Source: a bacterium
GTDB taxonomy: Bacteria; Patescibacteriota; Minisyncoccia; Phycocordibacterales; UBA9973
Length of the DNA stretch: 64,000 bases
Reading direction: 5' to 3'
Assembly (NCBI GenBank): GCA_037127795.1
Contig: JBAXXQ010000001.1
Location: 78,607-142,606, forward strand
Shown here: positions 2,969 through 52,984 of the stretch, one piece after another
How positions within the stretch are numbered: the first letter of the stretch is position 1
Layout of the letters: every line of letters begins with the position of its first letter
The notes under the pieces: model-generated
Seen by the model: the letters and a program-made list of their open reading frames with translations, nothing else
What the model was told of the DNA's origin: nothing
The model's database searches: none
Made by a program: the position numbers and the translations under genes

Positions 2969-4174
2969 ATGAATAACTCAAAAGATACCCAAGAGAAAAT
3001 CAGTACCCTAATAGAAAAAGGGGTTTCTGAAATTTTACCAAGTAAAAAATTCCTTGAATCACTTTTAATACAAGATAAAAAGCTTCGTATATATGCAGGA
3101 TTTGATCCGACAGGGCCAACACTTCACCTCGGACACACTATTCAGCTTCGCAAGTTGCGACATTTCCAAGATCTCGGTCATGAAATAATCTTTTTAATAG
3201 GAGATTTTACTGCACGCATTGGAGACCCTACAGACAAGACTGCCGCACGCAAACAACTCACTGAAAAAGAAATAAAAACAAATTTGAAATTGTACAAAAA
3301 ACAAGCAGAAAAATTTATTAGCTTTTCTGGAAGAAATGGTGCAAAAATAAAATTCAATAATGACTGGCTCGGTAAAATGAAGTTTGCAGATGTGCTCGAA
3401 CTTGCAAGTCATATGACTGTAGATCAAATGCTCAAGCGCGATATGTTTGCTCGTCGTATCGAAGAAGAAAAGCCAATTTATATTCACGAATTTATGTATC
3501 CACTCATGCAAGGATACGATAGTGTCTATATGCAAGTAGATGGAGAAGTAGGGGGGAATGACCAGCTTTTCAACATGCTCGCAGGACGCACACTTCTTAA
3601 ACAATTGAAAAATAAAGAGAAATTTGTTATCACTACAAAACTCCTCGAAGATGCGAATGGTAAAAAAATGGGAAAGACCGAAGGTAATATGGTGTCTCTC
3701 ATTGATACCCCAGAAGATATGTATGGCAAAATAATGTCTTGGACAGATGGGCTTATGGTTCCAGGTTTTGAGCTTTGTACTGATTTGAGTATGGGTGAAA
3801 TTGCTGATATTACAAAAGAATTAGAAAATGGTGCACATCCTCGCACTATCAAAATGTGTCTTGCATACGAAATTACAAAATCTATTCATGGGGAAAAAAG
3901 TGCACAGCAAGCACAAGATAATTTTGTAAGTATGTTTCAAAAAAAAGAAATTCCTACTGATGCGCAAAAGATAAATATACAAAACAAAACACTTGAAGAG
4001 ATTCTTATAGAAAACAACCTTCTTACTTCAAAAGGGGAAGTGCGACGTATGCTCGAAAGTGGTGCTATAAAAAATCTTTCAACAGACACAGTATTAAAAA
4101 ACGAAGATGCAAAAAGTATTCCAGGACAAGGAGTATATAAAATAGGAAAAGCAAAGTTTATAGAGTTTGTATAA
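2969..4174 (+). CDS. tyrS: tyrosine--tRNA ligase
   Basis: HLGH (HIGH variant) and KMGKT (KMSKS) class-I motifs; GFDPTGPTLHLGH; C-terminal S4-like tail. Confidence 0.9.
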   Translation: MNNSKDTQEKISTLIEKGVSEILPSKKFLESLLIQDKKLRIYAGFDPTGPTLHLGHTIQLRKLRHFQDLGHEIIFLIGDFTARIGDPTDKTAARKQLTEKEIKTNLKLYKKQAEKFISFSGRNGAKIKFNNDWLGKMKFADVLELASHMTVDQMLKRDMFARRIEEEKPIYIHEFMYPLMQGYDSVYMQVDGEVGGNDQLFNMLAGRTLLKQLKNKEKFVITTKLLEDANGKKMGKTEGNMVSLIDTPEDMYGKIMSWTDGLMVPGFELCTDLSMGEIADITKELENGAHPRTIKMCLAYEITKSIHGEKSAQQAQDNFVSMFQKKEIPTDAQKINIQNKTLEEILIENNLLTSKGEVRRMLESGAIKNLSTDTVLKNEDAKSIPGQGVYKIGKAKFIEFV

Positions 4175-4180
4175 ATAAAA

Positions 4181-4207
4181 AACCCCGAGAGTCTCGGGTT
4201 TTTTTTG
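4181..4207 (+). terminator. rho-independent terminator after tyrS
   Basis: aaccccgagagtctcgggtttttttt: GC stem, then T-run. Confidence 0.7.
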
Positions 4208-4214
4208 TATGGTT

Positions 4215-4580
4215 TTAAAAATTATTTATTTCTCTAAATAATCTTTCAGTAGATTTTGCTCCGGTATTGCATATAGCAAGATCAAAACCACTCGTGTTTG
4301 CTGGAGAAAAACCAGCAGAATAAAGAATTACTTTTGTTTCTGGGTGTTTTTCTTTTGCACCCTTTAAAAGTAGTAATGAGGCACTGGTTGGGTTGTCTGA
4401 TTCTCCACCAGCAACAATAGAACTTGTAATAACAAGACAGTTTTTACCGACTAAGCCTACTGCTTGTTTCCAGTTTTGTGCATATACAACTTCTAGGTGT
4501 GGACATGTATGCTCAATTCGGTCTTTTACTGCTTCAAAATATAAGAAGCTTTCTGCGCAAAGAATAACTAATTTTTTCAT
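4215..4580 (-). CDS. hypothetical protein (possible receiver-like fold, no clear phospho-acceptor Asp)
   Basis: 121-aa ORF with alternating beta/alpha-like pattern; no diagnostic motif. Confidence 0.3.
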   Translation of the reverse strand: MKKLVILCAESFLYFEAVKDRIEHTCPHLEVVYAQNWKQAVGLVGKNCLVITSSIVAGGESDNPTSASLLLLKGAKEKHPETKVILYSAGFSPANTSGFDLAICNTGAKSTERLFREINNF

Positions 4581-4859
4581 TGTATTTTTTTCTATACAAT
4601 ACTTTATTCAAAAATAAAGTCAAATTATTTCAACCCGAAAAGTTTGCCGAGGAGATCTGTCCAAGTCTTTTGAAATAAGGTTACAAAGAGAAAACCAGGG
4701 ACAAAAAAGACACTTACCAATATAAAAAGTATAAGGTCGAATATAAAAGCAATAATGTCTTCGGCTGATTTCACTACTCGTATACTACAAAAAATGACGA
4801 AATGGTCAAATTATGGTGGAAAACACATGTTACAAAAAGTCGTGGTATTATAGATATAT

Positions 4860-5786
4860 ATGACGATAGTAATTACTGGAGGATCGGGGTTCGTAGGGAC
4901 AAAGCTTTCAAAAAAGCTTTTAGATAAAGGCTATACAGTGATTGTGGTAGATTTGCATGCACCAACATTTACCAATGAAAAACTATTTTTTATTCCACTT
5001 GATCTTACCAAGTCTATTATTCCTTTTGGTGTTCTCGAACATGCAGATGCAGTAGTCAATCTTTCAGGTGCTCCTATTTCTCAAAAATGGAACGAAGAAG
5101 TACAAAAGGTTATTTATGATAGTCGCATCGAAAGTACTAAACATGTAGTACAAAGCTTTGAAGCAACACATGCTCGCCCAGGAGTACTAGTAAATGCTTC
5201 TGCTATAGGATTTTATGGGGAAACAGGAGAAAGTATTTCTGATGAAAAAACACCTGCAGGAAAAGGGTTTTTGGCAAAAGTAGTTACTGATTGGGAAAAC
5301 GAAGCAAATAAAGCAAGTGCATTTGGGGTACGAGTAGTATTGGTACGTACTGCGCCAGTGCTTGGTTTAGGGGGGATGCTTGCGCTCTATACACAGACAG
5401 CACGGTTTGGATTTTTGCTCGGTCTACAAAAAGATTTTATGCTTTCATGGATCCATGTAGATGATCTTGTAGATGCATATATTTTTGCAATTGAAACCTC
5501 AACCGTACAGGGAGTAATAAATGCTGCTGCTCCAGAGACAACAAGTTATAAAAAATTGATGCTCGCACTTTCACACACTATCCACCGTCGTGCGTTTTTC
5601 TTTATTCCAAAAAAGCTCGCGCTCTATGTATTTGGTGTTGATGGGTATGAAGAGTTGACTGTAAACCAGCTCGCCAAGCCAAGTAGATTGCTTGATAAGG
5701 GGTTCGTATTTACTTATCCGACACTACAAGGTGCTCTCACACAAATATATCCAGTAGTACAAAAAAACCATGAAAAGAGTAGATAG
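4860..5786 (+). CDS. NAD-dependent epimerase/dehydratase family protein (YfcH/TIGR01777-like)
   Basis: N-terminal Rossmann motif ITGGSGFVGTKL; length and C-terminal region fit the YfcH (DUF1731) family; extended -10 tgGTATTAT 8 nt before ATG (leaderless). Confidence 0.6.
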   Translation: MTIVITGGSGFVGTKLSKKLLDKGYTVIVVDLHAPTFTNEKLFFIPLDLTKSIIPFGVLEHADAVVNLSGAPISQKWNEEVQKVIYDSRIESTKHVVQSFEATHARPGVLVNASAIGFYGETGESISDEKTPAGKGFLAKVVTDWENEANKASAFGVRVVLVRTAPVLGLGGMLALYTQTARFGFLLGLQKDFMLSWIHVDDLVDAYIFAIETSTVQGVINAAAPETTSYKKLMLALSHTIHRRAFFFIPKKLALYVFGVDGYEELTVNQLAKPSRLLDKGFVFTYPTLQGALTQIYPVVQKNHEKSR

Positions 5787-6645
5787 TGTAGTACAACCAA
5801 GTGCCGGATACGAACTTATCGATTGTGGTAATGGACGCAAGTTAGAACAATTTGGCGAACTTGTTCTCGATAGACCAGATCCTCAGGCACTTTGGCAAAA
5901 AACAGACAAGTCTCTTTGGGTGCGCGCTGATGGGCAATTCCTTTGGAAAGAAAGTGGTGAACGGTGGAAAATGCAGCAAGGCATCGCAGACTCTTGGCAT
6001 ATGGCGTATGCAGATATGGTTTTTTCTCTTTCAACAAAAGGATTCAAACATGTAGGGATTTTTCCAGAACATATTGCGCAATGGGAAGAATTGTACACAC
6101 TCGGCAAAAAATATGCGAATACCAAGCAACCATTAAAAATGCTTAATTTGTTTGGCTATACTGGCGCCGCAAGTGTCGCAGGATCTCTCGCTGGTATGCA
6201 GGTGACTCACGTAGACGCATCAAAAACAACTATACTCACAGTCCGAGAAAATATGGAGCTCTCAGGACTCAAACAAGATGCAATGCGTATTATTTGTGAA
6301 GATGCATTTCTCTATGTGAAGCGTTTGGTGAAAAGAGGGGAGCAGTTTGATGTTATTGTGATGGATCCACCAGCTTTTGGTCGTGGACCAAAAGGCGAAG
6401 TATGGAAAATAGAAGAATCTCTCACCGAGTTTCTCGCACTTCTTCCATCTATTGTTTCACCTAGTGCAAAACTTGTTATTTTAAATGGATACGCAGCAGG
6501 GTACAGTGCTCGCACATTTGGTGAACTTCTCGGCGAATCTCTCAAAGATAAAAAAGGTGAAATAATATATGGCGATATTGGTATGCAACAAAAAAATACC
6601 GATCGTGTGCTCACAACCGGTATTTATGCGAAATGGGTTAAGTAA
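5770..6645 (+). CDS. class I SAM-dependent (rRNA-type) methyltransferase, RlmI/YccW-like catalytic domain
   Basis: LNLFGYTGAASVAG (SAM-binding), DVIVMDPPAFGRG (DPPxF motif). Confidence 0.6.
   Translation: MKRVDSVVQPSAGYELIDCGNGRKLEQFGELVLDRPDPQALWQKTDKSLWVRADGQFLWKESGERWKMQQGIADSWHMAYADMVFSLSTKGFKHVGIFPEHIAQWEELYTLGKKYANTKQPLKMLNLFGYTGAASVAGSLAGMQVTHVDASKTTILTVRENMELSGLKQDAMRIICEDAFLYVKRLVKRGEQFDVIVMDPPAFGRGPKGEVWKIEESLTEFLALLPSIVSPSAKLVILNGYAAGYSARTFGELLGESLKDKKGEIIYGDIGMQQKNTDRVLTTGIYAKWVK
6586..6645 (+). repeat. direct repeat copy 1 (3' end of methyltransferase ORF), 57/60 identical to 8235-8294
   Basis: caacaaaaaaataccgatcgtgtgctcacaaccggtatttatGcgaaatgggtTaaGtaa. Confidence 0.9.
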
Positions 6646-6693: not shown

Positions 6694-7326
6694 TTAACTA
6701 GCAATACCTAAATAGGGTACATGGTTACCGAAATGGTCAATACAAAAAGTATCAATAGTGTCATTTTTTGGTATTTCACGATATGCAGGTATCGGACAAA
6801 TTCCAATACTTGAATCATTAGTTTTTAAATACCTGGTAACACCAGCACTACTAGTTGATCTTCCTTCGTTTTGTAATGCGCGTACGAGAACCCCATCAAC
6901 ACCATATTCTGTTAGTAATTTTGGTAAATCAATAACAGTAGACCCATCATCGACAACTGATATAACAATAGGAATATTCAAATCCTTTGCTTTTTGTATT
7001 GCATTTTTTGCCATATCATTAGTAAATTTATTTAAACTTATTTCAACCCTAGTAAGACCAGATCTTACGGATGCTTTGGTAGCGCATAAAACAGAAACAC
7101 GCTTACCTAGATTAAATATTTTTTCTAATAATTCATCAAAACCTACAAACAATCCAGTTTCTCCGTTGCTTGTTAGATACACCTCATCACAAGAGGGGAG
7201 CTCTTTCAAAACAGTAGCTATTACTTTTTCTGAATCTCCTTCGTTGTGTTTTGGTGTTCTACAAAAACTACAACCAAGTGGGCATGGTGCTGGCAGTTGT
7301 ACTGCCAAAATCTTTTGCTTTTTCAT
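6694..7326 (-). CDS. small radical SAM domain protein (unknown specificity)
   Basis: CPLGCSFC = CxxxCxxC 4Fe-4S/SAM cluster motif near N-terminus; 210 aa. Confidence 0.6.
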   Translation of the reverse strand: MKKQKILAVQLPAPCPLGCSFCRTPKHNEGDSEKVIATVLKELPSCDEVYLTSNGETGLFVGFDELLEKIFNLGKRVSVLCATKASVRSGLTRVEISLNKFTNDMAKNAIQKAKDLNIPIVISVVDDGSTVIDLPKLLTEYGVDGVLVRALQNEGRSTSSAGVTRYLKTNDSSIGICPIPAYREIPKNDTIDTFCIDHFGNHVPYLGIAS

Positions 7327-7374
7327 TTTTAATTATTTTTAATAGTACACAATATATTTATACTATATACTATA

Positions 7375-7399
7375 CTGTATTGTTATATTTGCAATACAG
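7375..7399. promoter_or_regulatory. inverted repeat CTGTATTG-N9-CAATACAG in divergent promoter region (candidate operator)
   Basis: Perfect 8-bp inverted repeat between the divergent radical-SAM and TrmB-like genes; TTGACA-N17/18-TATACT promoter follows at 7411-7440. Confidence 0.4.
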
Positions 7400-7466
7400 T
7401 TTTATATAATTTGACAAAAAGATATTATTTTATATATACTAAATACTGTTATTAACTATTAACAAC

Positions 7467-8228
7467 ATGATAGAAGAAACACTACAAAACATAGGGTTAA
7501 CTGATAAAGAAATTCAAGTTTTTTTAACAGTTTTTCAAAATAAAAGAATTTTACCAGCACGAATAAGTACACTGTCTGGTATTAATCGTTCTACGGTATA
7601 TGTAATTGGGGAAAAACTAGAAAAAGAAGGACTTATTACTATCGATTACGGAAATAGTAGTAGATATTTTGTTGCACCTGATATACAAGATTTGGAAAAA
7701 CAACTAAAACAAGAAGAAGAAAAACTTCAAAAAAAAGAGCAGTCTTATAAAAATTTACTCAAAGAGCTTAAAAATTTACCTGTTACTGGAAAATATTCAG
7801 TACCAAAAATTCGTTTTATAGCAGAACATCAATTAAAAGATTTTCTTATTAAAGAATCAGATAAATGGGCAAAAAGCGCTCTTTTATATGATAAAACATG
7901 GTGGGGGTATCAAGACCCTACACTACTCGAGCAATATGAATCTTGGCCTGATTATTTTTGGCCAAAATATAAGAACGACATCTTGATGAAAATTTTTACA
8001 AATAAAAAGATTATCGAAAAAAAGATTAGTAAAAAGAATTATTCAGGCAAGAGAATGATTAAATTCCTTGATCCTAAAAAACATGATTTTTCTGCAACAC
8101 AGGTAGTTGTTGGAGAATATATTCTTATGATAGTAACAAGAGAACATCCTCATTATTTAATAGAGATACACGATGCTGTTATGGCTCACAATCTTAGAGA
8201 ATCTTTTAAATTAATGTGGGGAGAATAG
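7467..8228 (+). CDS. TrmB-family (winged HTH) transcriptional regulator
   Basis: N-terminal LTDKEIQVFLTVFQNKRILPARISTLSGINRSTVYVIGEKLEKEGLI matches the TrmB-type HTH; 253 aa. Confidence 0.55.
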   Translation: MIEETLQNIGLTDKEIQVFLTVFQNKRILPARISTLSGINRSTVYVIGEKLEKEGLITIDYGNSSRYFVAPDIQDLEKQLKQEEEKLQKKEQSYKNLLKELKNLPVTGKYSVPKIRFIAEHQLKDFLIKESDKWAKSALLYDKTWWGYQDPTLLEQYESWPDYFWPKYKNDILMKIFTNKKIIEKKISKKNYSGKRMIKFLDPKKHDFSATQVVVGEYILMIVTREHPHYLIEIHDAVMAHNLRESFKLMWGE

Positions 8229-8234
8229 TGTGTA

Positions 8235-8294
8235 CAACAAAAAAATACCGATCGTGTGCTCACAACCGGTATTTATACGAAATGGGTAAAATAA
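8235..8294 (+). repeat. direct repeat copy 2 (relic of methyltransferase 3' end), 57/60 identical to 6586-6645
   Basis: caacaaaaaaataccgatcgtgtgctcacaaccggtatttatAcgaaatgggtAaaAtaa immediately after the TrmB stop. Confidence 0.9.
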
Positions 8295-8585
8295 TTAAAC
8301 TTCTTCAATTTGAAATTCAGAAAAGTAAGCACTCGGGTTTAATTCTAAAGCTTCCAAAACTGCAAAGATTAGAATTTTTACCGTAATTGCATAACTAAAA
8401 TGTATTTCTACAGATAGTTCTTTTTGATCAGAATGATCTATCTTTTTTAGTTCAGGAAGAATACGCATTCCTACTGTTTGTAAAAAAGAAGCTTGAATAC
8501 TATCAAATAGTAACCTTTCCTTATTTTTTGGAATAAGTTTTTCAAAACATCGAGTTGTTACTCGTACATTGTCAGTAAATCTCAT
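8295..8585 (-). CDS. hypothetical protein
   Basis: 96-aa ORF, no recognisable motif. Confidence 0.3.
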   Translation of the reverse strand: MRFTDNVRVTTRCFEKLIPKNKERLLFDSIQASFLQTVGMRILPELKKIDHSDQKELSVEIHFSYAITVKILIFAVLEALELNPSAYFSEFQIEEV

Positions 8586-8685
8586 ATATTATTTTTTTAT
8601 TAAAATACTCTTTATTAAAAATAAGTCAAGTTTTTTATACATGCTATAATTCATTCTGTTATAAGAATTAGAAAGTAATACAGAT

Positions 8686-9300
8686 ATGTCATTTTTAACA
8701 CAACTCAATTGGCGGTATGCCACAAAAAAGTTTGATACAGAAAAAAAGATATCAGACGAGCAATTACAAAAAATACAACAAGCTATCAAGATGGCGCCAA
8801 GCTCATTCGGATTGCAACCATTGCATGTATTGGTAATAACCAACTCAGAACTTCGTGAGCAATTGAAAGGTGCTTCATGGGGGCAGGGACAAGTAACTGA
8901 TGCGTCACATCTTTTTGTATTTTGCGCTCGTACAGACTTGCTTGCTCGTACCAATACTTTTTTTGAAGCAATATCTGGTGGCTCAGCAGAAGCTCGTGCA
9001 GGATTGAAAGGCTACGAAGAAATGATTACCAATACAGTAAATGCACTTTCTCCAGAAAAAGCACAACAATGGACTGCTCGCCAAGCATATATTGCGCTCG
9101 GTTTTGCTTTGGCTGCATGTGCAGAGCTCGAAATAGATTCTTGCCCAATGGAAGGATTTGATCCAGCACAATATCATCACATTCTCAATCTTCCAGAAGA
9201 TATGCAAGCAGTGCTTGTGCTCCCTGTAGGATTTCGTCACGCAGACGATGTTATTAGACCTAAATTTAGATTCAATGACATCTTCGAAACTCGCGCCTAA
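8686..9300 (+). CDS. nitroreductase family NAD(P)H oxidoreductase
   Basis: LNWRYATKKFD N-terminus and overall pattern typical of NfsB/NfnB-like nitroreductases. Confidence 0.75.
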   Translation: MSFLTQLNWRYATKKFDTEKKISDEQLQKIQQAIKMAPSSFGLQPLHVLVITNSELREQLKGASWGQGQVTDASHLFVFCARTDLLARTNTFFEAISGGSAEARAGLKGYEEMITNTVNALSPEKAQQWTARQAYIALGFALAACAELEIDSCPMEGFDPAQYHHILNLPEDMQAVLVLPVGFRHADDVIRPKFRFNDIFETRA

Positions 9301-9700
9301 GTATAGTGTTCCTGGAGACCTTGTTGTAAAAAAGGGGATTAATGGACTCGGCCTTTTTACCAAAGTATCTATCAAAAAAGGTGATTGTATTATTGAATAT
9401 GTCGGTGAAATAATCACTGAAGATGAAGCAAATATTCGTGGTGGCAAATATCTTTTTCAAACAGGAAAAAATCGCCATATAGATGGTACTGCTCGGACAA
9501 ATACTGCCCGCTATCTCAATCACTCATGTCGCCCCAACGCAGAGAGTGATATCAAAAAAGGACGCATATTTATCTTTGCAAAAAGAAATATCAAACCTGG
9601 CGAAGAGCTTTGTTATGATTATGGTAAAGAATACTTCAATGAATACATCAAACCAAAAGGGTGTCGGTGTGAGAAATGCGTAGTAAAACAAGAAGTGTAG
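9275..9700 (+). CDS. SET-domain protein (putative protein lysine methyltransferase)
   Basis: NHSCRPN and ELCYDYG SET signature motifs; C-terminal CRCEKC post-SET-like Cys cluster; ATG at 9275 overlaps the nitroreductase 3' end by 26 nt. Confidence 0.75.
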   Translation: MTSSKLAPKYSVPGDLVVKKGINGLGLFTKVSIKKGDCIIEYVGEIITEDEANIRGGKYLFQTGKNRHIDGTARTNTARYLNHSCRPNAESDIKKGRIFIFAKRNIKPGEELCYDYGKEYFNEYIKPKGCRCEKCVVKQEV

Positions 9701-44812: not shown

Positions 44813-44884
44813 GGTGCCTATAGTTTAGTGGCAAAACTTCAGTTTGTGGAACTGATATCGAGGGTCCGATTCCCTCTAGGCACC
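44813..44884 (+). tRNA. tRNA-His (anticodon GUG) with encoded G-1
   Basis: G-GTGCCTATAGTTTAGTGGCAAAACTTCAGTTTGTGGAACTGATATCGAGGGTCCGATTCCCTCTAGGCAC-C; G-1 pairs with discriminator C73. Confidence 0.85.
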
Positions 44885-44959
44885 CCACGTTTTTAATCTT
44901 TATATAATAAAGGTTTAAAAAGACACCTTAGTGAAAATTAGGTCTAATACAATAAATAC

Positions 44960-45793
44960 TTATATTTTGGGTATATAAAAATACTTGTTAAATTTAATAC
45001 GCCATTTTTCGGCTTCCTTTTTTGAGCGTAATAGTGTTATTTTTGTTTGATCCTTTCTATTACAAAGCTTTTCAAGCTCTAAGTAATTTTCCTGGTTTAT
45101 AATAGTATATTTTTTGAAAAAGCTATCAATGTCATCGCTAAATCTTTTACTAACCGATATTTTAAAAATAAAGTCCCCCAGAACATTGATATATTCTGTA
45201 TTTTTTAAACCTAACTTAATTCCAAGTCCCACCTGAACAAAACTATTGGAATGATTTTGTTTAAACTGTTTATCTAATAGGGAGTTACTACCAAGAGCAA
45301 AAAATACAACTTTCTTATCATCTTTGAAGCGGCTAAGAAAAAATAGTTCTGATTGAGCTCGTGCGTATATCAACCATTCATGTGGGTGATATACAAGAAT
45401 AGGAGTTTTTGGATTGTGTTGGTTAAAAATAGGGTTATACGCATGTGTCCAAAATATTCCCATCAAAATAGGGTTTTTGAATTTATACGTTATTTTATCT
45501 CCATCTTCTAAAGACACAATGTCGTGCATAGCTTCGTTTGTTTCAGTGTATTTTTTACTAAAATGATATATACGTTGGAGCCACTGTCTGTTAATTTGAT
45601 ATATTTTCTTTTGCTTAGTAATAACCTCTTCTTCGAGCAATCTTCGTAGCGTTCTATAAAAAGTTTCTTTTGATATAGAAAAATCTCTCTCTAGGACATG
45701 TTTGAGAAGGGTAGGGCCAGTAATCTCTTTCTCATGGAGAAGTTCAACAATATATTCTTCTATTTTTTTATCACCATTTTGAGCCATTAACAT
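44960..45793 (-). CDS. winged-helix transcriptional regulator-like protein (divergent from CDPS gene)
   Basis: N-terminal IEEYIVELLHEKEITGPTLLKHVLERDFSISKETFYRTLRRLLEEEVI wHTH-like; rest unknown. Confidence 0.4.
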   Translation of the reverse strand: MLMAQNGDKKIEEYIVELLHEKEITGPTLLKHVLERDFSISKETFYRTLRRLLEEEVITKQKKIYQINRQWLQRIYHFSKKYTETNEAMHDIVSLEDGDKITYKFKNPILMGIFWTHAYNPIFNQHNPKTPILVYHPHEWLIYARAQSELFFLSRFKDDKKVVFFALGSNSLLDKQFKQNHSNSFVQVGLGIKLGLKNTEYINVLGDFIFKISVSKRFSDDIDSFFKKYTIINQENYLELEKLCNRKDQTKITLLRSKKEAEKWRIKFNKYFYIPKI

Positions 45794-45812
45794 ATACAGT
45801 AAGTATATCAAA

Positions 45813-45831
45813 AGTGTCAAAAAATGACACT
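45813..45831. promoter_or_regulatory. inverted repeat AGTGTCA-N5-TGACACT (candidate operator)
   Basis: Perfect 7-bp inverted repeat just upstream of the regulator start, between divergent genes. Confidence 0.35.
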
Positions 45832-45916
45832 AATATATTAAAAAACAATAAAAAATAGATTTGTCAAATAGGTGCTGTATATTCTTTTAAATATTCATTC
45901 ATTTAAAAAATATACT

Positions 45917-46558
45917 ATGCAAGTAAAAGAATGTTCACCTGTAGGGATAGATGTTATACAAAACAAAGGAGCAATTATTATCGGAGTAAGTATTAATAAT
46001 AGTTATTTTAAAGAATCTAATTTAACAAAAATAATTTCTTGGTCAGCGACAAGAGCAAGTAATGTTTATATTATGATTCCTGATACTCCGTCGGTAAGTA
46101 CATTAATTGCTTTAGGGTATGAGCAGAATAAGGCAGAAACACTAGCAAGACTGAAATCTAATAGTTTAGAAAATAAGTGTTTATTTATTATTAAAGAATT
46201 AAATCTTGATAATATAAAAATTATTAGATGGAGGGATTTGATAGGAAGGATAGAATATGTTCAAGCAATCGGGCATATTAAATATTTCTACGACAACGAC
46301 CTATCTTTTAAAGATGCATTGAGAAAAACAACTAGTGATGTTCTCAAACATAATATGTCGGATGTTCCTAGTGAATCTCAGATAGATATAGGTGTTGTTT
46401 TCTTACTTCAAGAGCTTGCCTTTATTTGTCATGCAGACTCTATTTTAAAAGAAGAGAAGTTGGGATATTTGTATCACAACACAATGGATGTTTTAAAAGG
46501 GATTATTGAAAATAGGTTTTCTTTCAAAACAAAAATTGGTTTTATCACCGCAGAATAA
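45917..46558 (+). CDS. tRNA-dependent cyclodipeptide synthase (CDPS, AlbC/YvmC family)
   Basis: AIIIGVSINNSYFKESNLTKIISWSA matches the CDPS hallmark GISxxNSxF..LIxWA; FLLQELAFICH...YLYH matches the ELP(F/Y)..YH C-terminal catalytic region; 213 aa. Confidence 0.65.
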   Translation: MQVKECSPVGIDVIQNKGAIIIGVSINNSYFKESNLTKIISWSATRASNVYIMIPDTPSVSTLIALGYEQNKAETLARLKSNSLENKCLFIIKELNLDNIKIIRWRDLIGRIEYVQAIGHIKYFYDNDLSFKDALRKTTSDVLKHNMSDVPSESQIDIGVVFLLQELAFICHADSILKEEKLGYLYHNTMDVLKGIIENRFSFKTKIGFITAE

Positions 46559-46704
46559 TCATTACCTTTAAAAGCCTATATGTGATTTATAGGCTTTTTT
46601 TGTTTATATATTAATTCCTTCTAATAGAGTTTCCTAAGCTCGTCGAGTATAGGACACCCTATTTAGACAAGCTTAGAACAGCTTTTCTGGTATACTTGTT
46701 ATAT

Positions 46705-47667
46705 ATGGATTTAATTAATTGTCTTGAAAATAATTGTTTTGGAGTTCCTGATTCTAAAATAGATACACTTTTATCAACATTGTATTTTTTTAACGAAAAG
46801 GTAATAAAGATTTATAAACATAAAAAAGCTTTTTATGGTGATTTGTCAGATAGTGATTTCAGAAGAGATTTTTATATTGAAGATTTTACTTGGAATAATA
46901 CATTGAGCCCTGATTTATATCTTCGTTTGGTCGGTGTTGTTATTGAAAACAATATTCCCGTAGAGGTCTCACATGGTAGTGCTACAGATTTTTATATAGA
47001 AATGAAGAAAATAGATAGTTCAAAAAATATAACAAATTTGTTAGATAAAAATAAGATAACATCTGAAGATTTGGAATCTATCACTTCTTACATGATTAAA
47101 AAAATAAGGGTCCTTACTTCTGAAAAAAAAGAAAAAATGAAGGATTTATTTTTAGGTAATTGGAAGGCTATTTTAACTCAAGATGTTGAAGATTTACGGG
47201 GGTGGATGTATATGGCTGATACCTATATATTTAAAGGTGATGTTGATGAAATAATTGATTTTTTAAAAACATCTATTAATAATGATGAATATATTTCAAG
47301 TTTTAAATCTATTGATCTTGCAGTTTCTATTGACAATCAAGGTGACAACATACTTATGATTGATAATAAACCTTTGTTTATAGATATAATGCCACCTAAA
47401 TACAATTGGCGGGTTTGTGATGAATTTTTTAATATTTCAAGAATTGCTGTTGATGCTTATGTTCTTGGTGATGAAAAAAAGTATGAATCAGTATATGAAG
47501 TTTTTAATAATTTTGGGATAGAACCACCAGAACGAACAAGAATTATTTATGAAATTAGAAGTGCTCTTATTTTATGGCCATATAGACATATTCTTGGGCA
47601 AAATGAAATGGCTGAAAAGTATAAAAAATTTACTCTTGATAAAATTAATATATTAAAATCTTTGTAA
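46705..47667 (+). CDS. hypothetical protein, possible kinase-like (APH/PKL) fold
   Basis: SIDNQGDNILMID (Dx4N Brenner-like) followed by FIDIM (DFG-like Asp); leaderless: TGgTATACT -10 ends 8 nt before ATG. Confidence 0.3.
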   Translation: MDLINCLENNCFGVPDSKIDTLLSTLYFFNEKVIKIYKHKKAFYGDLSDSDFRRDFYIEDFTWNNTLSPDLYLRLVGVVIENNIPVEVSHGSATDFYIEMKKIDSSKNITNLLDKNKITSEDLESITSYMIKKIRVLTSEKKEKMKDLFLGNWKAILTQDVEDLRGWMYMADTYIFKGDVDEIIDFLKTSINNDEYISSFKSIDLAVSIDNQGDNILMIDNKPLFIDIMPPKYNWRVCDEFFNISRIAVDAYVLGDEKKYESVYEVFNNFGIEPPERTRIIYEIRSALILWPYRHILGQNEMAEKYKKFTLDKINILKSL

Positions 47668-47668
47668 T

Positions 47669-48457
47669 ATGGAAAAAATAAATTTTGAAACAAAAGAGAA
47701 TATTCCTAAATATAATATAACAAAGGTTGATTTCATAAGACATGGATCTACAAAATATGAGGAGAATAACTTATCAAAAGAAGAAAAAGATTTATTAGGT
47801 GAAAATATTCCTTTAGATTTAACACCTGAAGGTGAAGAAGAGGTTAAAAAATCTGCTGAAGAAATAATTAAAAAAATAAATCCAGAAAAAGAGATTGTAG
47901 TACTTTGGAGCTCTCCTGCCTGGAGAGCTCAAGGGTCTGAATCTATTATTAATCAAATGCTTAATAATGCTGGTATCCTTGTCTATAAAGATTCTTCTAT
48001 TAATCAAATGAGAAGTTTTGATCAGTATGATAAGGATTATATGGATAGTGTTTGGAAAAAAATAGCACCTATTGGTACTTCCTCAGAATTATTATATGCA
48101 CGCGATCCTGAGTTTCAGAGTAGAAATGATAAATTTGAGAGTCAACCAGAGGTGAAGGAAAGAGCAGAGCAGGTATTTAATTGGATTAGATATTTAAATG
48201 AGCATATTAATTTAGAAGATAAAAATCTTCATATTATAGGTGCTAGTCATTTTGAATTTTTAAATCCTATCATGGAAGATATATTTGATTTTAGGGTTGA
48301 AAATGGTGACGCTTTTAAAAAGGGGGAGAATATCAGCATTCAGTTTAATTTTAACAAGGAAACAAAAGAAACGAGTATTACTGCAGACTTCCGTGGGGTA
48401 CATAAAGAGGGTATTATTTTTGACCCTATAAAAAGAAAGTTTTCACTATTACCCTAA
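47669..48457 (+). CDS. histidine phosphatase superfamily protein (branch 1)
   Basis: FIRHGST (RHG) and IIGASHFE (SH) catalytic signatures. Confidence 0.6.
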   Translation: MEKINFETKENIPKYNITKVDFIRHGSTKYEENNLSKEEKDLLGENIPLDLTPEGEEEVKKSAEEIIKKINPEKEIVVLWSSPAWRAQGSESIINQMLNNAGILVYKDSSINQMRSFDQYDKDYMDSVWKKIAPIGTSSELLYARDPEFQSRNDKFESQPEVKERAEQVFNWIRYLNEHINLEDKNLHIIGASHFEFLNPIMEDIFDFRVENGDAFKKGENISIQFNFNKETKETSITADFRGVHKEGIIFDPIKRKFSLLP

Positions 48458-48499
48458 GCTCATTGGGCATAGGATCTAATTAATGTAACACTACATATA

Positions 48500-48540
48500 T
48501 TGACACATATGCCGTTTATCTATAATGTAAAGAAAAAATA
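48500..48540 (+). promoter_or_regulatory. promoter TTGACA-N15-TATAAT plus conserved 5' UTR gtaaagaaaaaata
   Basis: 20-mer tataatgtaaagaaaaaata identical to 50180-50199. Confidence 0.5.
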
Positions 48541-48546
48541 TAGTAA

Positions 48547-49167
48547 ATGAAAAAACAAAATTTATTCTTTGATTTAGATGGTATGAAATTTGATACCTTA
48601 CCAGTGTTTGTTTCTTATATCAATAATAGATATGGAATACAGACTAAAACTTCTGATCATATTGGTAATAATGACCGTTTGGATGCTGTTATAAAAAAAC
48701 ACGCACCACATATTACTTTGAGTTGGGAAGAGATTTATAAAGATGTTGGTGAAAATTTTCACTCATCGATAGTATGGCATAAAGATGTAGAGCCAATGGA
48801 AGATATGTGTGAAGTTATTTCGTTACTTTCAAATAAATATAATCTTTATACGGTTACCGCACGTCAGAAGGTAGGTGTTCATGTTGTCCAATATTTATTG
48901 GATACTCATATTCCTGGATGTATAGATGATATACATTGTGTATGGGACTATATTGAAGGAAAAGGTTTTTTTGAAATATCTAAAAAAGATTTCATAAAAA
49001 ACACACAAGGTGATAATATTGGATTTTTTGATGATTCATTAAATGAGGTAATGAAGGTCAAGAACACAATCCCTTCCTATTTGTTTGATCCAATGGATTT
49101 GTATGCAGACGTTCAAGGAGTAACTCGTATACGTAGTTGGCAGCAAATTGGTCATTTATATTTATAA
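48547..49167 (+). CDS. HAD-superfamily phosphatase, 5'(3')-deoxyribonucleotidase (NT5C)-like
   Basis: N-terminal LFFDLDGM (DxDG nucleophile motif); ~200 aa. Confidence 0.55.
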   Translation: MKKQNLFFDLDGMKFDTLPVFVSYINNRYGIQTKTSDHIGNNDRLDAVIKKHAPHITLSWEEIYKDVGENFHSSIVWHKDVEPMEDMCEVISLLSNKYNLYTVTARQKVGVHVVQYLLDTHIPGCIDDIHCVWDYIEGKGFFEISKKDFIKNTQGDNIGFFDDSLNEVMKVKNTIPSYLFDPMDLYADVQGVTRIRSWQQIGHLYL

Positions 49168-49263
49168 AAGTACGAGACAAGAAGTTTTTGCAGTAATGTA
49201 AAAACTTCTTTTTTGTTTTATATAAATGAATTTAAAAAAATATTTTCTGGTATACTTGTCTAT

Positions 49264-49659
49264 ATGAAAGAACTTACTCAAGAAGAAAAGTGGGTGATTA
49301 TCGACAAGGGGACAGAAGCTCCATTTGTGGGTACGTATGTAAACAATAAAGAGACTGGTGTATATGTGTGCAAACAGTGTGGTGCGCCGTTGTATGATTC
49401 AAAAGATAAATTTGAGTCTAGTTGTGGATGGCCTAGTTTTGATGATGAGATCTCTGGTGCGATTCATAAAAGTATTGAGAGTCGCGCTTCAATGGACACT
49501 GCGCGACACGATTCTGCAGAATCGAATGTCCGCACAGAAATAACTTGTGCGCACTGTGGTGGACACCTGGGGCACATATTCAAAGGTGAGCATTTTACAG
49601 ACAAAGATATTCGACATTGTGTAAACTCAATTTCATTAGATTTTATTCCAGGAAAATAA
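49264..49659 (+). CDS. msrB: peptide methionine (R)-S-oxide reductase MsrB
   Basis: CKQCGAPL...[18 protein letters not shown] (Zn Cys pairs + catalytic Cys); leaderless behind TGgTATACT. Confidence 0.85.
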
Positions 49660-49660
49660 T

Positions 49661-50146
49661 ATGATCAAAAAAGCAGTATTTGCAGGTGGGTGTTTTTGGG
49701 GATTACAAGATCTGATACGAAAGCAGGTAGGTGTGATAGAAACACAGGTGGGGTACACAGGAGGTAGTATAGAAAATCCTACATACGAGCGACATACAGG
49801 GTACGCAGAAGCAGTCGAGATCACATATGATACAGAAAAAACATCATACAAAAACTTACTTGATTTTTTCTTTCAAATTCATAACCCTACTACACTAAAC
49901 CAACAAGGCAATGATCGGGGGACTTCGTATCGCTCAGCAATTTTTTATGGAAATGAAGAAGAGAAGAAAGAGGCTGAAGATTTTATAAAAATTGTAAATG
50001 ATTCAAAACGGTGGGACGGTCCTGTGGTTACGACGCTCGAGCCGCTTGGTATCTTTTGGAGGGCAGAGGAATATCACCAAGACTATTTGGTAAAAAACCC
50101 TGCTGGATATACTTGCCACGCCATTTGGTTCGATAGTTATTTATAA
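49661..50146 (+). CDS. msrA: peptide methionine (S)-S-oxide reductase MsrA
   Basis: FAGGCFWG active-site motif. Confidence 0.85.
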
Positions 50147-50158
50147 AATGCACGTTTA

Positions 50159-50199
50159 TTGACATATATATATTTTAGTTATAATGTAAAGAAAAAATA
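50159..50199 (+). promoter_or_regulatory. promoter TTGACA-N15-TATAAT plus conserved 5' UTR (twin of 48500-48540)
   Basis: tataatgtaaagaaaaaata. Confidence 0.5.
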
Positions 50200-50203
50200 A
50201 AAT

Positions 50204-50728
50204 ATGGAAAAAATAGTAATTACTCAGGATCCTTTTACTCTTAGTAAGGAAATTATTGATGAGTATGGTGAATTTTTATTAGCACCAGAATATCAATTAC
50301 GTAGTTTTAGTGTTGGTGTATCATTTACGGTAAATGATTTAGAAATTATCGGTATGTATGGTCCAAATAGGTATCTCACCGGTTTGGAATTCAGAAATCA
50401 AATTGTTGCAAAAAAGTATGTACCACTTGATGCATATTGTGCTCAGGCTATTTTGCAAAATGAAGAAGCTTGTTATGAATTGAAATCAAAATGGTATCAA
50501 GAATTTTCTCATAAAGACAATACCGACCTAGACACGATAAGCTTTTTTGGATCTATGTTAGTTGATTGTAATAAAGCATTACAGGTACTTTCTTTTAAGT
50601 ATGATAATTGGACTGATTTTTATCAGCGACCAATTCTTACTCCTTTTGAAGCACGGGATCCATGGTTTAAAGATGATGATTTTGCTCTTGTTTTCAAAGA
50701 AGATTTTATAAAAAAGAATTTTGAATAA
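50204..50728 (+). CDS. hypothetical protein
   Basis: 174-aa ORF. Confidence 0.35.
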   Translation: MEKIVITQDPFTLSKEIIDEYGEFLLAPEYQLRSFSVGVSFTVNDLEIIGMYGPNRYLTGLEFRNQIVAKKYVPLDAYCAQAILQNEEACYELKSKWYQEFSHKDNTDLDTISFFGSMLVDCNKALQVLSFKYDNWTDFYQRPILTPFEARDPWFKDDDFALVFKEDFIKKNFE

Positions 50729-50741
50729 AATTTTACAACAC

Positions 50742-50778
50742 ACACAAATATCCTCTATGTCTCTGGAATAGAGGGTAT
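50742..50778 (+). terminator. rho-independent terminator
   Basis: tcctctatgtctctggaatagagggtattttttt. Confidence 0.65.
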
Positions 50779-50821
50779 TTTTTTATTAATTAATAAAAAA
50801 TATTTCTGATATACTCTGTGT

Positions 50822-52198
50822 ATGGAAAATGAATATAAAAATGACGGGGTAAATGAAATTTCGAAAACAAAAACGAATTGGAAATTTTTAGGTATTATGC
50901 TCGTTATTTTAATTGTTCAGATGGTTGGTATCTTTTTTTCTGGTGTATTGATGTTTATCAATGGTATAGATACGTTTAGTTTAGGTCTTTTTATAGGGGG
51001 ATTTATCGTTGCTACTGGTGTCATCTTGCTCCCTTTACCTTTTTGGATTACAGCGAAAAAGCAAAATAAAGGTTCAATTTTTACAATAAATATCCTTATC
51101 AGTGGTATTGTCTGTATCGAATTGGTATTTGTTTTAATAAGCTCAATTATTGGTGGTATACACAATCACTATCAACAAAAAGCATTTCAGGCACAGCTGA
51201 CACAAGAGACTGCTCGTGATAAAACAGAGTATCAAAAAATAATTAGCGGACCACAAACTGTTTTGATTAAGGGGTGGAAAGATAATAATAGTGGAACAAA
51301 TTTACTTGAAACAAATCTTGATTTCTACATATTACTTAATACATCATTTACTCCAGCTATAATAGATTACATTAATAAAAATATTGTTGGAAAACAGTTT
51401 GATCTTATTGTGCCTGAATATGCACCAGGAGAAATTAGTAATTCTGGGTCTAATGAGTATCCTATATGGTCTTGTAGATGTGATCTTGGTCAGAATGGAC
51501 AAGGATTTGAATCGATACTTAGTAAAATTTATAGAAATACACAACCACAATTTAATTCTAGTAATCAAATTATTAGTGAACAAAAAGCAACATATTCTCC
51601 TGGAGATGAATATGTTGATAAATTTATACATGGCACATTTAAAATTTTAAAGACAAATCAGGTTTTTGATTACAAATCTGCGTATGGGACTAATCCAGTA
51701 GGAAGTATCGCTGATTATAATCAATATGCAGTAAGTGATTGTATAACTAAAAATTGTAAAATAGTTTATTTTATAGATAATACATATAGTAATGTTGGGC
51801 CTGCGAATACATTAGCTGTTTTTAATGATATAGATAATCCTGCAATTGGTAAGGTTGTTGATACTACTTTTTATTCTGATGTGAAAAAAGTTGCAAAATT
51901 TTCTACCCCATATAAACCAGAAGACAAGGTTGTGTATACCATTTCATACACGCAAGGTGTAAAACAGGGACAGGTCACATATACAGACAACCTATGTACA
52001 GGTACTAAAGGGGGAGGGTTTAGTTGTCATGAGCCAAGCCTGTATAAAAATGCATTTGCTATATTTTCTCATACCGACAGCCAAGAAGAATATCAAAGTA
52101 TGAACTTCACAGGAAAAATAATAGAGACTGAATTGACCAGCTATCAGTATGCAACTCAGCCAGATACAGGTGAGCAGTTTCCTTTGGTAAAAAGATAA
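50822..52198 (+). CDS. hypothetical membrane protein (3 N-terminal TM helices + large Cys-containing extracytoplasmic domain)
   Basis: 458 aa; leaderless behind TGaTATACT. Confidence 0.4.
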   Translation: MENEYKNDGVNEISKTKTNWKFLGIMLVILIVQMVGIFFSGVLMFINGIDTFSLGLFIGGFIVATGVILLPLPFWITAKKQNKGSIFTINILISGIVCIELVFVLISSIIGGIHNHYQQKAFQAQLTQETARDKTEYQKIISGPQTVLIKGWKDNNSGTNLLETNLDFYILLNTSFTPAIIDYINKNIVGKQFDLIVPEYAPGEISNSGSNEYPIWSCRCDLGQNGQGFESILSKIYRNTQPQFNSSNQIISEQKATYSPGDEYVDKFIHGTFKILKTNQVFDYKSAYGTNPVGSIADYNQYAVSDCITKNCKIVYFIDNTYSNVGPANTLAVFNDIDNPAIGKVVDTTFYSDVKKVAKFSTPYKPEDKVVYTISYTQGVKQGQVTYTDNLCTGTKGGGFSCHEPSLYKNAFAIFSHTDSQEEYQSMNFTGKIIETELTSYQYATQPDTGEQFPLVKR

Positions 52199-52252
52199 GT
52201 TAAAAATTCTTGGGTGGGATATGTGATGTGTTATTTCTGATATACTTTGCGT

Positions 52253-52984
52253 ATGTTGAGGTTTAAAAAACAACCACTATTTTATTTTGTAATTATTTCT
52301 TTAGTAATACCGAGTTTTTGTTTTGCTACAGTAGATAGGGATATTCGCGTACAAGATATTAGAAATAAACAATTTGAATTATTGAGTCTCGATACGCCCA
52401 CTAGTTTTGGCGAAGCGTATGATATGGCAAAAATAGTTGCACAAAAAACAAAAATTCGCCCTGCATTTTTGTTGGCGATTTTTCAGCAAGAGCTTTCTTT
52501 AGAAAAAACAGATATGTGCTATCTCACTGATTTGCAAACAGGTGCTGGGGTGCGGATTATAGATGGAAAACAATTACAAAAAGTAATGAAACCAGAAAGA
52601 GATATTCCAGATTTTTTGCGTATTACAAAAGCGTTGCATAAAGATCCATACAAAACCGCTATTACGTGTCCAATGAGTTTCGGTTGGGGCGGGGCAATGG
52701 GGCCGGCAGATTTTATTCCATCTACATGGGCACAATATGAAAAGCGTATAGAGGATATAACGGGTGCACCAGCAAATCCGTGGAACACACAAGATGCATT
52801 TTGGGCTGCGGGATTATTTTTGTCAGATTCTGGTGCGAGATCAAAAAACACAAAAGGTGAATTTGATGCAGCAATGATTTATTTTTCTGGCTCTGCGAAA
52901 TCGCCATATACTTTTTATGCAAAAGGCGCACTAGCAAAAGAAGCTGTATTTGCTTCGTATATAAAAACCTTGGAAGGGAAGTAG
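52253..52984 (+). CDS. lytic murein transglycosylase (MltB/SLT_2 family-like)
   Basis: Signal peptide; RPAFLLAIFQQELS and GAMGPADFIPSTW match the MltB (GAMGQ.QFMPSTW) signature; probable ATG at 52253. Confidence 0.6.
   Translation: MLRFKKQPLFYFVIISLVIPSFCFATVDRDIRVQDIRNKQFELLSLDTPTSFGEAYDMAKIVAQKTKIRPAFLLAIFQQELSLEKTDMCYLTDLQTGAGVRIIDGKQLQKVMKPERDIPDFLRITKALHKDPYKTAITCPMSFGWGGAMGPADFIPSTWAQYEKRIEDITGAPANPWNTQDAFWAAGLFLSDSGARSKNTKGEFDAAMIYFSGSAKSPYTFYAKGALAKEAVFASYIKTLEGK

Follow-up and report, generated by a model that had tools for sequence, protein, structure and literature searches.

A divergent gene pair of a winged-helix partner protein and a cyclodipeptide synthase, with a conserved operator-like palindrome, in a candidate phyla radiation genome

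We analyzed a stretch of 64,000 nucleotides (the window) of contig JBAXXQ010000001.1, which comes from a bacterium of the candidate phyla radiation (CPR), with emphasis on a gene for a cyclodipeptide synthase (CDPS) at positions 45917-46558. The CDPS gene stands back to back with a gene for a regulator-like protein, here called the partner, and the functional unit is probably this two-gene divergent cassette (about 44960-46598) rather than the 8-kb block of genes following the tRNA-His gene that an earlier, sequence-only reading of the same DNA had proposed. The explanation given here, taken as a whole, is one that we hold with reasonable confidence. It describes a regulator-enzyme pair of an ordinary sort, in which some details are new, and is an incremental refinement of that reading, whose tRNA-His gene, open reading frames (ORFs) and motifs were all recovered in place. 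The cassette consists of the following features.

44960-45793, minus strand: partner gene, regulator-like, 277 aa, with a winged helix and a PLD/Nuc-like domain without HKD motif
45802-45830, minus strand: partner promoter found by promoter scan, with -35 GTGTCA (45830-45825), a 17-nt spacer and a TG-extended -10 TATACT (45807-45802)
45813-45831, unstranded: operator-like perfect 19-bp palindrome AGTGTCA-AAAAA-TGACACT, found by exact-site search and alignment
45862-45869, plus strand: third half-site TGTCAAAT on the CDPS side, found in a 10-lineage intergenic alignment
45878-45883, plus strand: -10-like hexamer TATATT of a candidate CDPS promoter, matching TAnnnT in all lineages aligned
45917-46558, plus strand: CDPS gene, 213 aa, NYH subfamily (PF16715, TIGR04539)
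46570-46598, plus strand: intrinsic terminator directly after the CDPS stop codon, with an 11-bp stem, a 7-nt loop and a T run, found by terminator scan

Conservation of the gene pair

Neighbourhoods were collected with either gene as the anchor. Around five CDPS homologues from different assemblies, a divergent gene of about 278-282 aa without a Pfam match stands directly upstream of the CDPS gene in every case (5/5), and its product is 53-62% identical to that of 44960-45793 in the window. The gaps between the two genes are 109-189 bp. When the partner is used as the anchor, a CDPS gene is divergently adjacent in 8 of 15 loci from species-representative genomes, including a distant subclade (identities to the window proteins of about 29% for the CDPS and 41-44% for the partner), and adjoins the partner gene in 4 of 20 loci on metagenome contigs. 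Conversely, wherever upstream sequence existed, a CDPS of this clade was adjoined by a partner gene. In the same loci, partners are 41-71% and CDPSs 29-52% identical to the window proteins, and the two values co-vary.

Synteny thus separates the pair from the rest of the 8-kb block. The partner-CDPS pair is kept across lineages, but the block is not, and the genes downstream of the CDPS gene differ between loci: DUF1003 and NUDIX genes; HIT and RecJ genes; a thioredoxin-like ORF and a histidine kinase; NDK, NUDIX and PIF1 genes; or a SIS gene. No tailoring gene is co-conserved with the CDPS gene in any lineage examined. Literature searches on CDPSs in the CPR or Patescibacteria returned surveys of biosynthetic gene clusters only, and in the literature searched the partner-CDPS pairing was found nowhere. 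Among the loci of other lineages (numbered with the prefix L), L012 has the pair together with a SIS-domain gene (7051-9515) within the conserved ribosomal-protein operon, between rplE (L5) and rpsN (S14), which is an unusual spot for accessory genes.

In the partner loci without a CDPS gene, no degenerate or cryptic CDPS was found when a hidden Markov model (HMM) of the clade was compared with ORFs and six-frame translations. The ORFs that occupy the CDPS position in these loci have no Pfam family except a treble-clef zinc finger.

The operator-like palindrome and the promoters

The sequence-only reading had described the CDPS gene as divergent from a winged-helix regulator with a 7-bp inverted repeat in its promoter, and this arrangement is confirmed. 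No other place in the 64-kb window has an exact match to AGTGTCA-N5-TGACACT. Of 28 loci searched, 24 contain exactly one copy, in each case a short distance before the partner start, whether or not a CDPS gene is present. In the alignment of the 123-bp intergenic region from 10 lineages, mean column identity is 54%, and both arms of the palindrome and the heptamer TGTCAAA are invariant, while the 5-nt spacer of the palindrome varies between lineages.

The palindrome covers the -35 element and the spacer of the partner promoter, and its distal arm GTGTCA is the -35 hexamer itself; judged from these positions, the geometry is that expected of autorepression. The -10 element ends 8 nt before the ATG, and the partner mRNA is predicted to be nearly leaderless. 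On the other side, a TTGTCA hexamer (45861-45866) lies at a fixed distance of 11 nt upstream of the -10-like element of the CDPS gene, and the TGTCAAA half-site may be a second binding site. With a candidate promoter and a predicted terminator of its own, the CDPS gene appears to be monocistronic.

The strongest evidence for the partner as a putative operator-reading factor is the covariation of its recognition helix with the palindrome. Family members with the helix SKETFYR carry GTGTCA-N5-TGACAC; a sister group that is 36-44% identical (subfamily B) has the helix TKQAxYK and the palindrome AGTAAAC-N5-GTTTACT, at the same position and in the same 7-N5-7 geometry.

Some further features of subfamily B were observed. 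Its palindrome lies about 35-40 nt before each partner ATG (L037:3945-3961, and likewise in L039, L041, L044, L045 and L046). In L037, L041 and L045 the divergent neighbour encodes an NmrA/SDR-like Rossmann protein of about 270 aa. L039 contains tandem copies (3407-4861 and 5067-6521) of a 160-aa ORF with a subfamily-B partner gene, and the two copies are identical at their N-termini.

The partner protein

The AlphaFold2 (AF2) model of the partner, with a mean predicted local distance difference test (pLDDT) score of 87.4, consists of a winged helix at about residues 11-67, a long helix at 69-85 and an alpha/beta PLD/Nuc-like domain at about 100-270. The model was compared with the PDB libraries by Foldseek. 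The winged helix is structurally clear, and the C-terminal domain has the PLD/Nuc alpha-beta fold. The segment equivalent to the HKD motif reads H136-P-H138-E-W-L-I-Y143 in the window partner, with His143 in most family members, and no member compared has Lys or Asp at the positions required for HxKx4D or HxD/Ex4K. Matches to PF01978, the winged helix of TrmB, are all below threshold and occur in 14 of 42 members (best E-value 0.0022). As far as the model goes, the partner is consistent with a TrmB/TrmBL2-like local transcription factor.

The family is large. An exhaustive HMM search found 1,621 representatives of 50%-identity clusters at E<=1e-3, 883 at 1e-10 and 199 at 1e-30; with few exceptions, the representatives are 265-290 aa long and match over their full length. 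Close homologues of the partner contain no Pfam domain, the family lacks a Pfam model, and targeted literature searches found no description of the family. In the PLD-like domain, residues D99, Y103, W115, H117, H136, H138, W140, R145, E149, D174 and Y201 are invariant or nearly so across the subfamilies, including members paired with other genes. Since this polar site is common to all subfamilies, whatever the domain binds or reacts with should be family-wide.

These other pairings are of several kinds. In L020 (4220-6031 and 6824-8575, both on the minus strand), L021, L023 and L028, the divergent position is taken not by a CDPS gene but by genes for Cys-rich proteins of about 570-610 aa. Their only recognizable domain is a treble-clef zinc finger (PF13451, 24 bits), and their partner genes have the same palindrome. 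A paralogue of the Cys-rich protein, 35-44% identical to it, is often found on the other side of the partner gene, and in L033 (4849-6672, minus strand) a homologue is located downstream only. Small ORFs are further neighbours of partner genes with the same operator. On the whole, the partner family behaves as a regulator family and not as an accessory of CDPSs.

The cyclodipeptide synthase

The product of 45917-46558 contains GVSINNSYF, IISWSA, ELAFI and YLYH, the motifs on which its identification as a CDPS had been based, and HMM searches confirm the identification above curated thresholds: PF16715 scores 86.8 bits against a cutoff of 27, covering residues 13-205 of 213, and TIGR04539 scores 127.5 bits against 45. 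In fact, an identical protein on a 580,599-bp contig is already annotated in NCBI as 'MAG: tRNA-dependent cyclodipeptide synthase [bacterium]'. The clade comprises 43 further proteins that are 40-54% identical to the window enzyme. Its profile aligns over the full length to solved CDPSs, namely 6ez3 (1e-24), BtCDPS, YvmC and AlbC (5e-17), and a Rossmann-like fold of the class-I aminoacyl-tRNA synthetase type is implied by such full-length profile alignments to six solved CDPS families.

By mapping to AlbC, S25 corresponds to Ser37, N28 to Asn40, E166 to Glu182, Y186 to Tyr202 and H187 to His203. Since N28, Y186 and H187 match the signature Asn40/Tyr202/His203, the enzyme is placed in the NYH subfamily, in agreement with the AlbC/YvmC-type assignment made earlier; one clade member has Asn at the His203 position. 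Of the four catalytic residues to be checked according to the sequence-only reading, the equivalents of Ser37, Glu182 and Tyr202 are present and invariant in the clade, but that of Tyr178 is Phe162. The alignment at this point is gap-free between G175/G159 and E182/E166 (AlbC/window). All 39 aligned CDPSs that are linked to a partner have Phe at this position; the residue is Tyr in AlbC, YvmC and Shae-CDPS.

The P1 pocket of the window enzyme reads IGMPWFIY, and [I/V/L]GMPWFIY is invariant in 33 clade members. The P2 pocket reads TDVHNMD and is variable within the clade. xGxPW motifs in P1 occur in prolyl-accepting CDPSs (PMC5816076, Table 2); the nearest row of that table, CDPS 100 of Nocardia concava, is an NYH enzyme whose product is 100% cyclo(Pro-Pro) (cPP) and whose pockets read CGHPWLLY/TDVHRIP (PMC5816076). 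From this prolyl-like P1 pocket we predict, with low confidence, a cyclo(Pro-X) product.

Proposed mechanism

In the mechanism that we propose, a dimer of the partner would bind AGTGTCA-N5-TGACACT by means of the winged helix and the dimerizing long helix. Since the palindrome covers the -35 element and spacer of the partner promoter, the partner would repress its own near-leaderless promoter; through the palindrome together with the TGTCAAA half-site, it would also gate the monocistronic transcription of the CDPS gene. Two kinds of site are known for TrmB as well: of its target promoters, one has a complete palindrome and another a half-site (PMC4158304). By analogy with the effect of sugars on TrmB, the PLD-fold domain would be an effector-sensing module that modulates the partner. 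The CDPS would join two aminoacyl-tRNA residues, probably with a prolyl residue in P1, to form an untailored 2,5-diketopiperazine (DKP). As for the effector, a family-wide metabolite is more likely than the cyclodipeptide itself, because the polar site is identical in members that have other neighbours.

Several observations weigh against this mechanism. About one third of the palindrome-bearing partner genes have no adjoining CDPS gene, so that the regulator is not CDPS-specific, and regulation of the CDPS gene is read from the geometry alone. The sequence does not establish that the partner belongs to the TrmB family: PF11495, the TrmB effector domain, has no match in the family members searched, and Foldseek finds no full-length solved relative of the partner at E<=0.001. 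A catalytic role is conceivable for the His, Arg, Glu and Asp residues that are strictly conserved in the PLD-like domain. As to the enzyme, the Y178F mutant of AlbC is poorly active and forms less acyl-enzyme (PMC3105412, PMC5935735), and the activity of the window clade may accordingly be low or altered. The cyclo(Pro-X) prediction is weak, since P2 varies and similar P1 motifs are also found in CDPSs that use Leu or Phe (PMC5816076).

Alternative explanations

The AlbC mutant and the presence of Phe in every partner-linked CDPS aligned lead to a first alternative, in which catalysis by the CDPS is impaired, or its activity or product departs from the canonical one. However, the equivalents of Ser37, Asn40, Tyr128, Glu182 and Tyr202 are invariant in the clade and that of His203 is nearly so, and the P1 pocket is invariant among sequences that are about 50% identical; this combination indicates purifying selection on a working active site. 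In addition, the clade-specific invariant residues M53-I54-P55-D56-x-P58 and Y184 could compensate for the Phe. We therefore regard an impaired or deviant enzyme as unlikely, though it deserves to be kept in mind.

A second alternative, of similarly low probability in our judgement, is a circuit like that of LuxI/LuxR, in which the CDPS makes a diffusible cyclodipeptide, the PLD-fold domain of the partner is its receptor, and autoinduction takes place at the shared divergent promoter. It has several attractive points: the linkage of synthase and regulator is tight and near-universal, with tailoring genes in no lineage examined; the divergent promoter holds a 19-bp palindrome; the invariant P1 pocket implies a constant moiety in the product; and the fold of the regulator looks like that of a ligand domain and is related to the effector domain of TrmB. 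Nevertheless, family members that stand beside zinc-finger, SDR-like or other genes have the same conserved polar residues in the PLD-like domain, as does subfamily B, which means that the site is not tuned to a DKP, and partners with the same operator occur without a CDPS gene within the flanks examined. The more specific form of this idea, slightly less probable again, is a minimal cyclodipeptide signalling circuit in a reduced-genome, probably episymbiotic CPR bacterium, in which the Phe-substituted CDPS makes an untailored cyclo(Pro-X) and the partner is the receptor that feeds back on the shared promoter. If this holds true, LuxI/LuxR would have a counterpart that depends on tRNA, and a ligand-receptor pair would for the first time be defined for the product of a CDPS.

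The conserved polar residues also raise the question of whether the partner is an enzyme instead of, or in addition to, a regulator, that is, a hydrolase or nuclease of the PLD superfamily that modifies the product or acts on DNA, in the manner of the Type IV restriction enzymes in which a winged helix is fused to a PLD fold. We consider this improbable. The motifs HxKx4D and HxD/Ex4K are missing, the order of the domains is reversed relative to the enzymes that combine a PLD fold with a winged helix (PLD-wH), and the non-catalytic PLD folds of TrmB, TrmBL2 and FAM83 match the partner equally well. Moreover, the putative recognition site lies in the partner's own promoter and covaries with the recognition helix, and PADLOC gives no matches of note in the block.

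The kinase and phosphatase genes

The cassette is followed by several genes that had been taken as part of the same block.

46683-47667, plus strand: kinase-like gene with its own promoter, outside the cassette; ATG at 46705, 320 aa, APH/choline-kinase fold
47669-48457, plus strand: histidine phosphatase, outside the cassette; His_Phos_1 27.0 bits against a cutoff of 21.7, RHG motif
48547-49167, plus strand: HAD/NT5C-like phosphatase, outside the cassette; NT5C 17.9 bits against 24.8, below threshold; DxDG motif FDLDG
msrB and msrA (msrA at 49661-50146): 137.8 and 201.2 bits
52247-52984: ORF with a weak SLT_2 match, 16.5 bits against a cutoff of 24.3

Most of the names given to these genes from the sequence hold up. 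The kinase-like label is supported by the fold, with an AF2 pLDDT of 94.1 and Foldseek probabilities of 1.00 to APH(2''), choline kinase, maltokinase and glucosamine kinase, and the residues K35, D210, D214, N215 and D227 (the Lys, the D-x4-N loop and the DFG-like Asp) are invariant in the family; a profile search of this protein against PDB sequences gave nothing meaningful. The histidine phosphatase passes its threshold, and msrB and msrA are solid. The HAD/NT5C-like phosphatase has the expected FDLDG motif but not the NT5C score, and the label 'MltB-like' for the last ORF is weak, its SLT_2 score being under the cutoff. For the 320/323-aa and 174-aa ORFs and a 458-aa membrane protein, Pfam and NCBIfam searches found no family. 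An msrA homologue (44% identity) is located two genes from the partner in L019 (4629-5264, minus strand), and msrA in the window is less than 4 kb from the cassette; this proximity in both loci may be residual synteny.

The sequence-only reading had suggested that the kinase-like protein and the two phosphatases tailor the cyclodipeptide, for example by way of phosphorylated DKP intermediates, and that the 8-kb block is an accessory island anchored at tRNA-His. In favour of this, the five genes from the partner to the HAD phosphatase have an unusually low G+C content (GC) of 0.26-0.31, compared with a window mean of 0.367 (standard deviation 0.037) and 0.40 for msrB/msrA, they adjoin a tRNA gene, and the same arrangement is found in two short contigs with an identical CDPS protein. 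However, the trio of kinase, His_Phos and HAD genes is beside the CDPS gene only in contigs with the identical CDPS protein, and the other CDPS lineages examined lack these genes downstream of the CDPS gene. Between the CDPS gene and the kinase gene stands the terminator at 46570-46598, and a separate TG-extended -10 promoter, TTTTCTGGTATACT, precedes the kinase ATG at 46705 by 8 nt. In other CPR lineages 26 homologues of the kinase were found; three of their neighbourhoods, all lacking CDPS and partner genes, each have a phosphatase gene adjacent to the kinase gene: HAD in L029, inositol monophosphatase (IMPase) in L030 and L031, and His_Phos_1 in L031. The kinase, His-phosphatase and HAD genes, whose GC is 0.30-0.31, are a separate adjacent low-GC module, and the recurrence of the APH-fold small-molecule kinase, whose family has no Pfam model, with phosphatases of three superfamilies (HAD, IMPase and His_Phos) in L029-L031 and in the window (46705-49167) suggests a conserved phosphorylation/dephosphorylation module.

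The position next to tRNA-His

The tRNA-His(gtg) gene was identified by ARAGORN and Rfam.

44814-44887, plus strand: tRNA-His(gtg)

A tRNA-His gene also lies beyond the 3' end of the partner gene in relatives, at 45 bp in L015, about 270 bp in L022 and 2.6-6 kb in L014, L017 and L010. L022, which has no CDPS gene, repeats the tRNA order of the window, His-Leu(gag)-Val(tac)-Arg(tct). At the tRNA-His locus only the genes beyond the CDPS vary, which is not the presence/absence polymorphism of an island. The 3'-terminal 21-mer of tRNA-His occurs only once in the window, even when up to 3 mismatches are allowed, and no integrase or phage family was found among the block proteins in scans of Pfam, NCBIfam and PHROGs; both absences had been noted before. 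Because the tRNA-His flank is shared with relatives and there is neither a 3' repeat nor an integrase, the adjacency is ancestral synteny and not an integration scar. Interpretations of tRNA-His as an integration site or as a gene for a CDPS substrate were dropped in favour of this one. A defence-system or prophage reading of the block was likewise dropped, since the PADLOC and PHROGs matches were marginal or of unknown function. Taken together with the arrangement of the kinase genes, synteny largely refutes the reading of the block as an island that tailors the cyclodipeptide, to which we assign very little probability.

In other lineages the cassette has been relocated, as in L012 (see above) and in L008 and L024-L026, where it is near tRNA-Arg(gcg). 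In these last four, the tRNA-Arg(gcg) gene is about 210-420 bp past the 3' end of the CDPS gene (L008:9064-9136, L024:4802-4874, L025:4911-4983 and L026:4975-5047). The four lineages belong to two CDPS subclades, and this may be a second recurrent tRNA-adjacent position of the cassette.

Other promoters and repeats

Both promoter motif families described in the sequence-only reading are real and have exact recurrences in the window. The first, TTTCTGGTATACTTGT, occurs exactly at 46684 and 49244, and 5 matches are found at up to 2 mismatches, compared with 0.34 expected. As a TG-extended -10 motif, TTTCTGnTATACT, it is located at 46684, 49244, 52234, 14990 and 62837 (minus strand), and also at 50801-50824, about 8 nt before start codons. 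By implication, near-leaderless transcription is common in this genome, and a naive choice of the longest ORF makes several genes too long at the start, for example msrB and the kinase gene (46696 instead of 46705).

The second family contains the 20-mer TATAATGTAAAGAAAAAATA, which is exact at 48521 and 50180. It is part of a 62-nt direct repeat with 76% identity (48493-48554 and 50152-50213) that includes TTGACA, a spacer and this 20-mer, which is the same in both copies. The repeat stands before the HAD gene and again before the 174-aa ORF, which suggests duplicated or co-regulated promoters.

Finally, the terminator scan also flags the cassette palindrome (7-bp stem with 3 G-C pairs, T run on the minus strand), but a terminator or attenuator hairpin in RNA or DNA, instead of a protein site, is hardly credible there and was rejected, because the palindrome is upstream of both divergent genes, where no transcript end is expected, its arms are invariant without compensatory changes although the 5-nt spacer is free to vary, it coincides with the -35 element and spacer of a promoter, and the sister subfamily has another palindrome of identical geometry matched to another recognition helix.

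Comparison with known systems

The window CDPS resembles the NYH enzymes AlbC, YvmC, Shae-CDPS (6ez3) and BtCDPS (7azu) in full-length homology, in its size of about 213 aa and in the equivalents of Ser37, Asn40, Tyr128, Glu182, Tyr202 and His203, although its identity to any solved CDPS is low. The clade differs from them in the invariant Phe for Tyr178 and in the clade-specific invariant M-I-P-D-x-P. Its P1 pocket, xGMPWFIY, is distinct from those of cLL/cFL enzymes (LGLAFFFL, LGVVLLFL). With CDPS 100 of N. concava it has in common the G, P, W and terminal Y of P1 and the TDVH of P2; the likeness is one of pocket motifs, and P2 is not conserved in the CPR clade. Tyr178 has been treated as conserved in CDPSs, and a clade with Phe in every aligned member is a natural test of its role.

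Another CDPS of a CPR genome, ParcuCDPS of Parcubacteria bacterium RAAC4_OD1_1, has been characterized and crystallized (PDB 7qat series); it belongs to the XYP subfamily and makes cHP/cHE (PMC5816076, PMC7613923). Its match to the window enzyme is weak (E-value about 0.005 with a single sequence), and its P1 pocket reads GAYAWELY. CPR CDPSs are therefore already known and active, and the suggestion that a CDPS in such a bacterium would be noteworthy in itself does not stand, the more so as this very protein is annotated in NCBI. With the tailoring and island readings failing as well, the cassette is less remarkable than first proposed.

The partner can be compared with TrmB and TrmBL2 (PDB 3qph, 2f5t, 5bpd), from which it differs in the lack of a significant match to PF01978 or PF11495 and of the sugar-binding C-terminal barrel of TrmB, and in the sequence and spacing of its operator; those proteins are archaeal, whereas the partner family comes from bacteria (CPR). 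In Aba4572I and CbaI, Type IV restriction endonucleases of the PLD-wH kind (PMC11037411), a winged helix is likewise combined with a PLD fold, but in the opposite order, and these enzymes keep HxDx4K or HxEx4K where the partner has HPHEWLI[Y/H]; a putative recognition site in its own promoter further distinguishes the partner. The similarity to LuxI/LuxR is a functional analogy only, consisting of a synthase gene, a gene for a DNA-binding protein and a promoter palindrome of about 20 bp. There is no homology, and the conserved site in the partner is not specific to the CDPS-linked members.

CDPS pathways are usually read by way of their tailoring enzymes. This CPR clade has none, and its constant companion is a candidate transcription factor. 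For genome mining, the window gives reason for caution, in that the apparent tailoring neighbours, a kinase and phosphatases, are a separate recurring module. That CDPSs occur in CPR genomes and that this ORF is a CDPS were already known. What is new is a regulator-operator-CDPS cassette in the CPR with a naturally Phe-substituted active site, which offers a putative triplet of regulator, operator and target (protein, 19-bp site and promoter) in a phylum with almost no defined transcriptional regulation.

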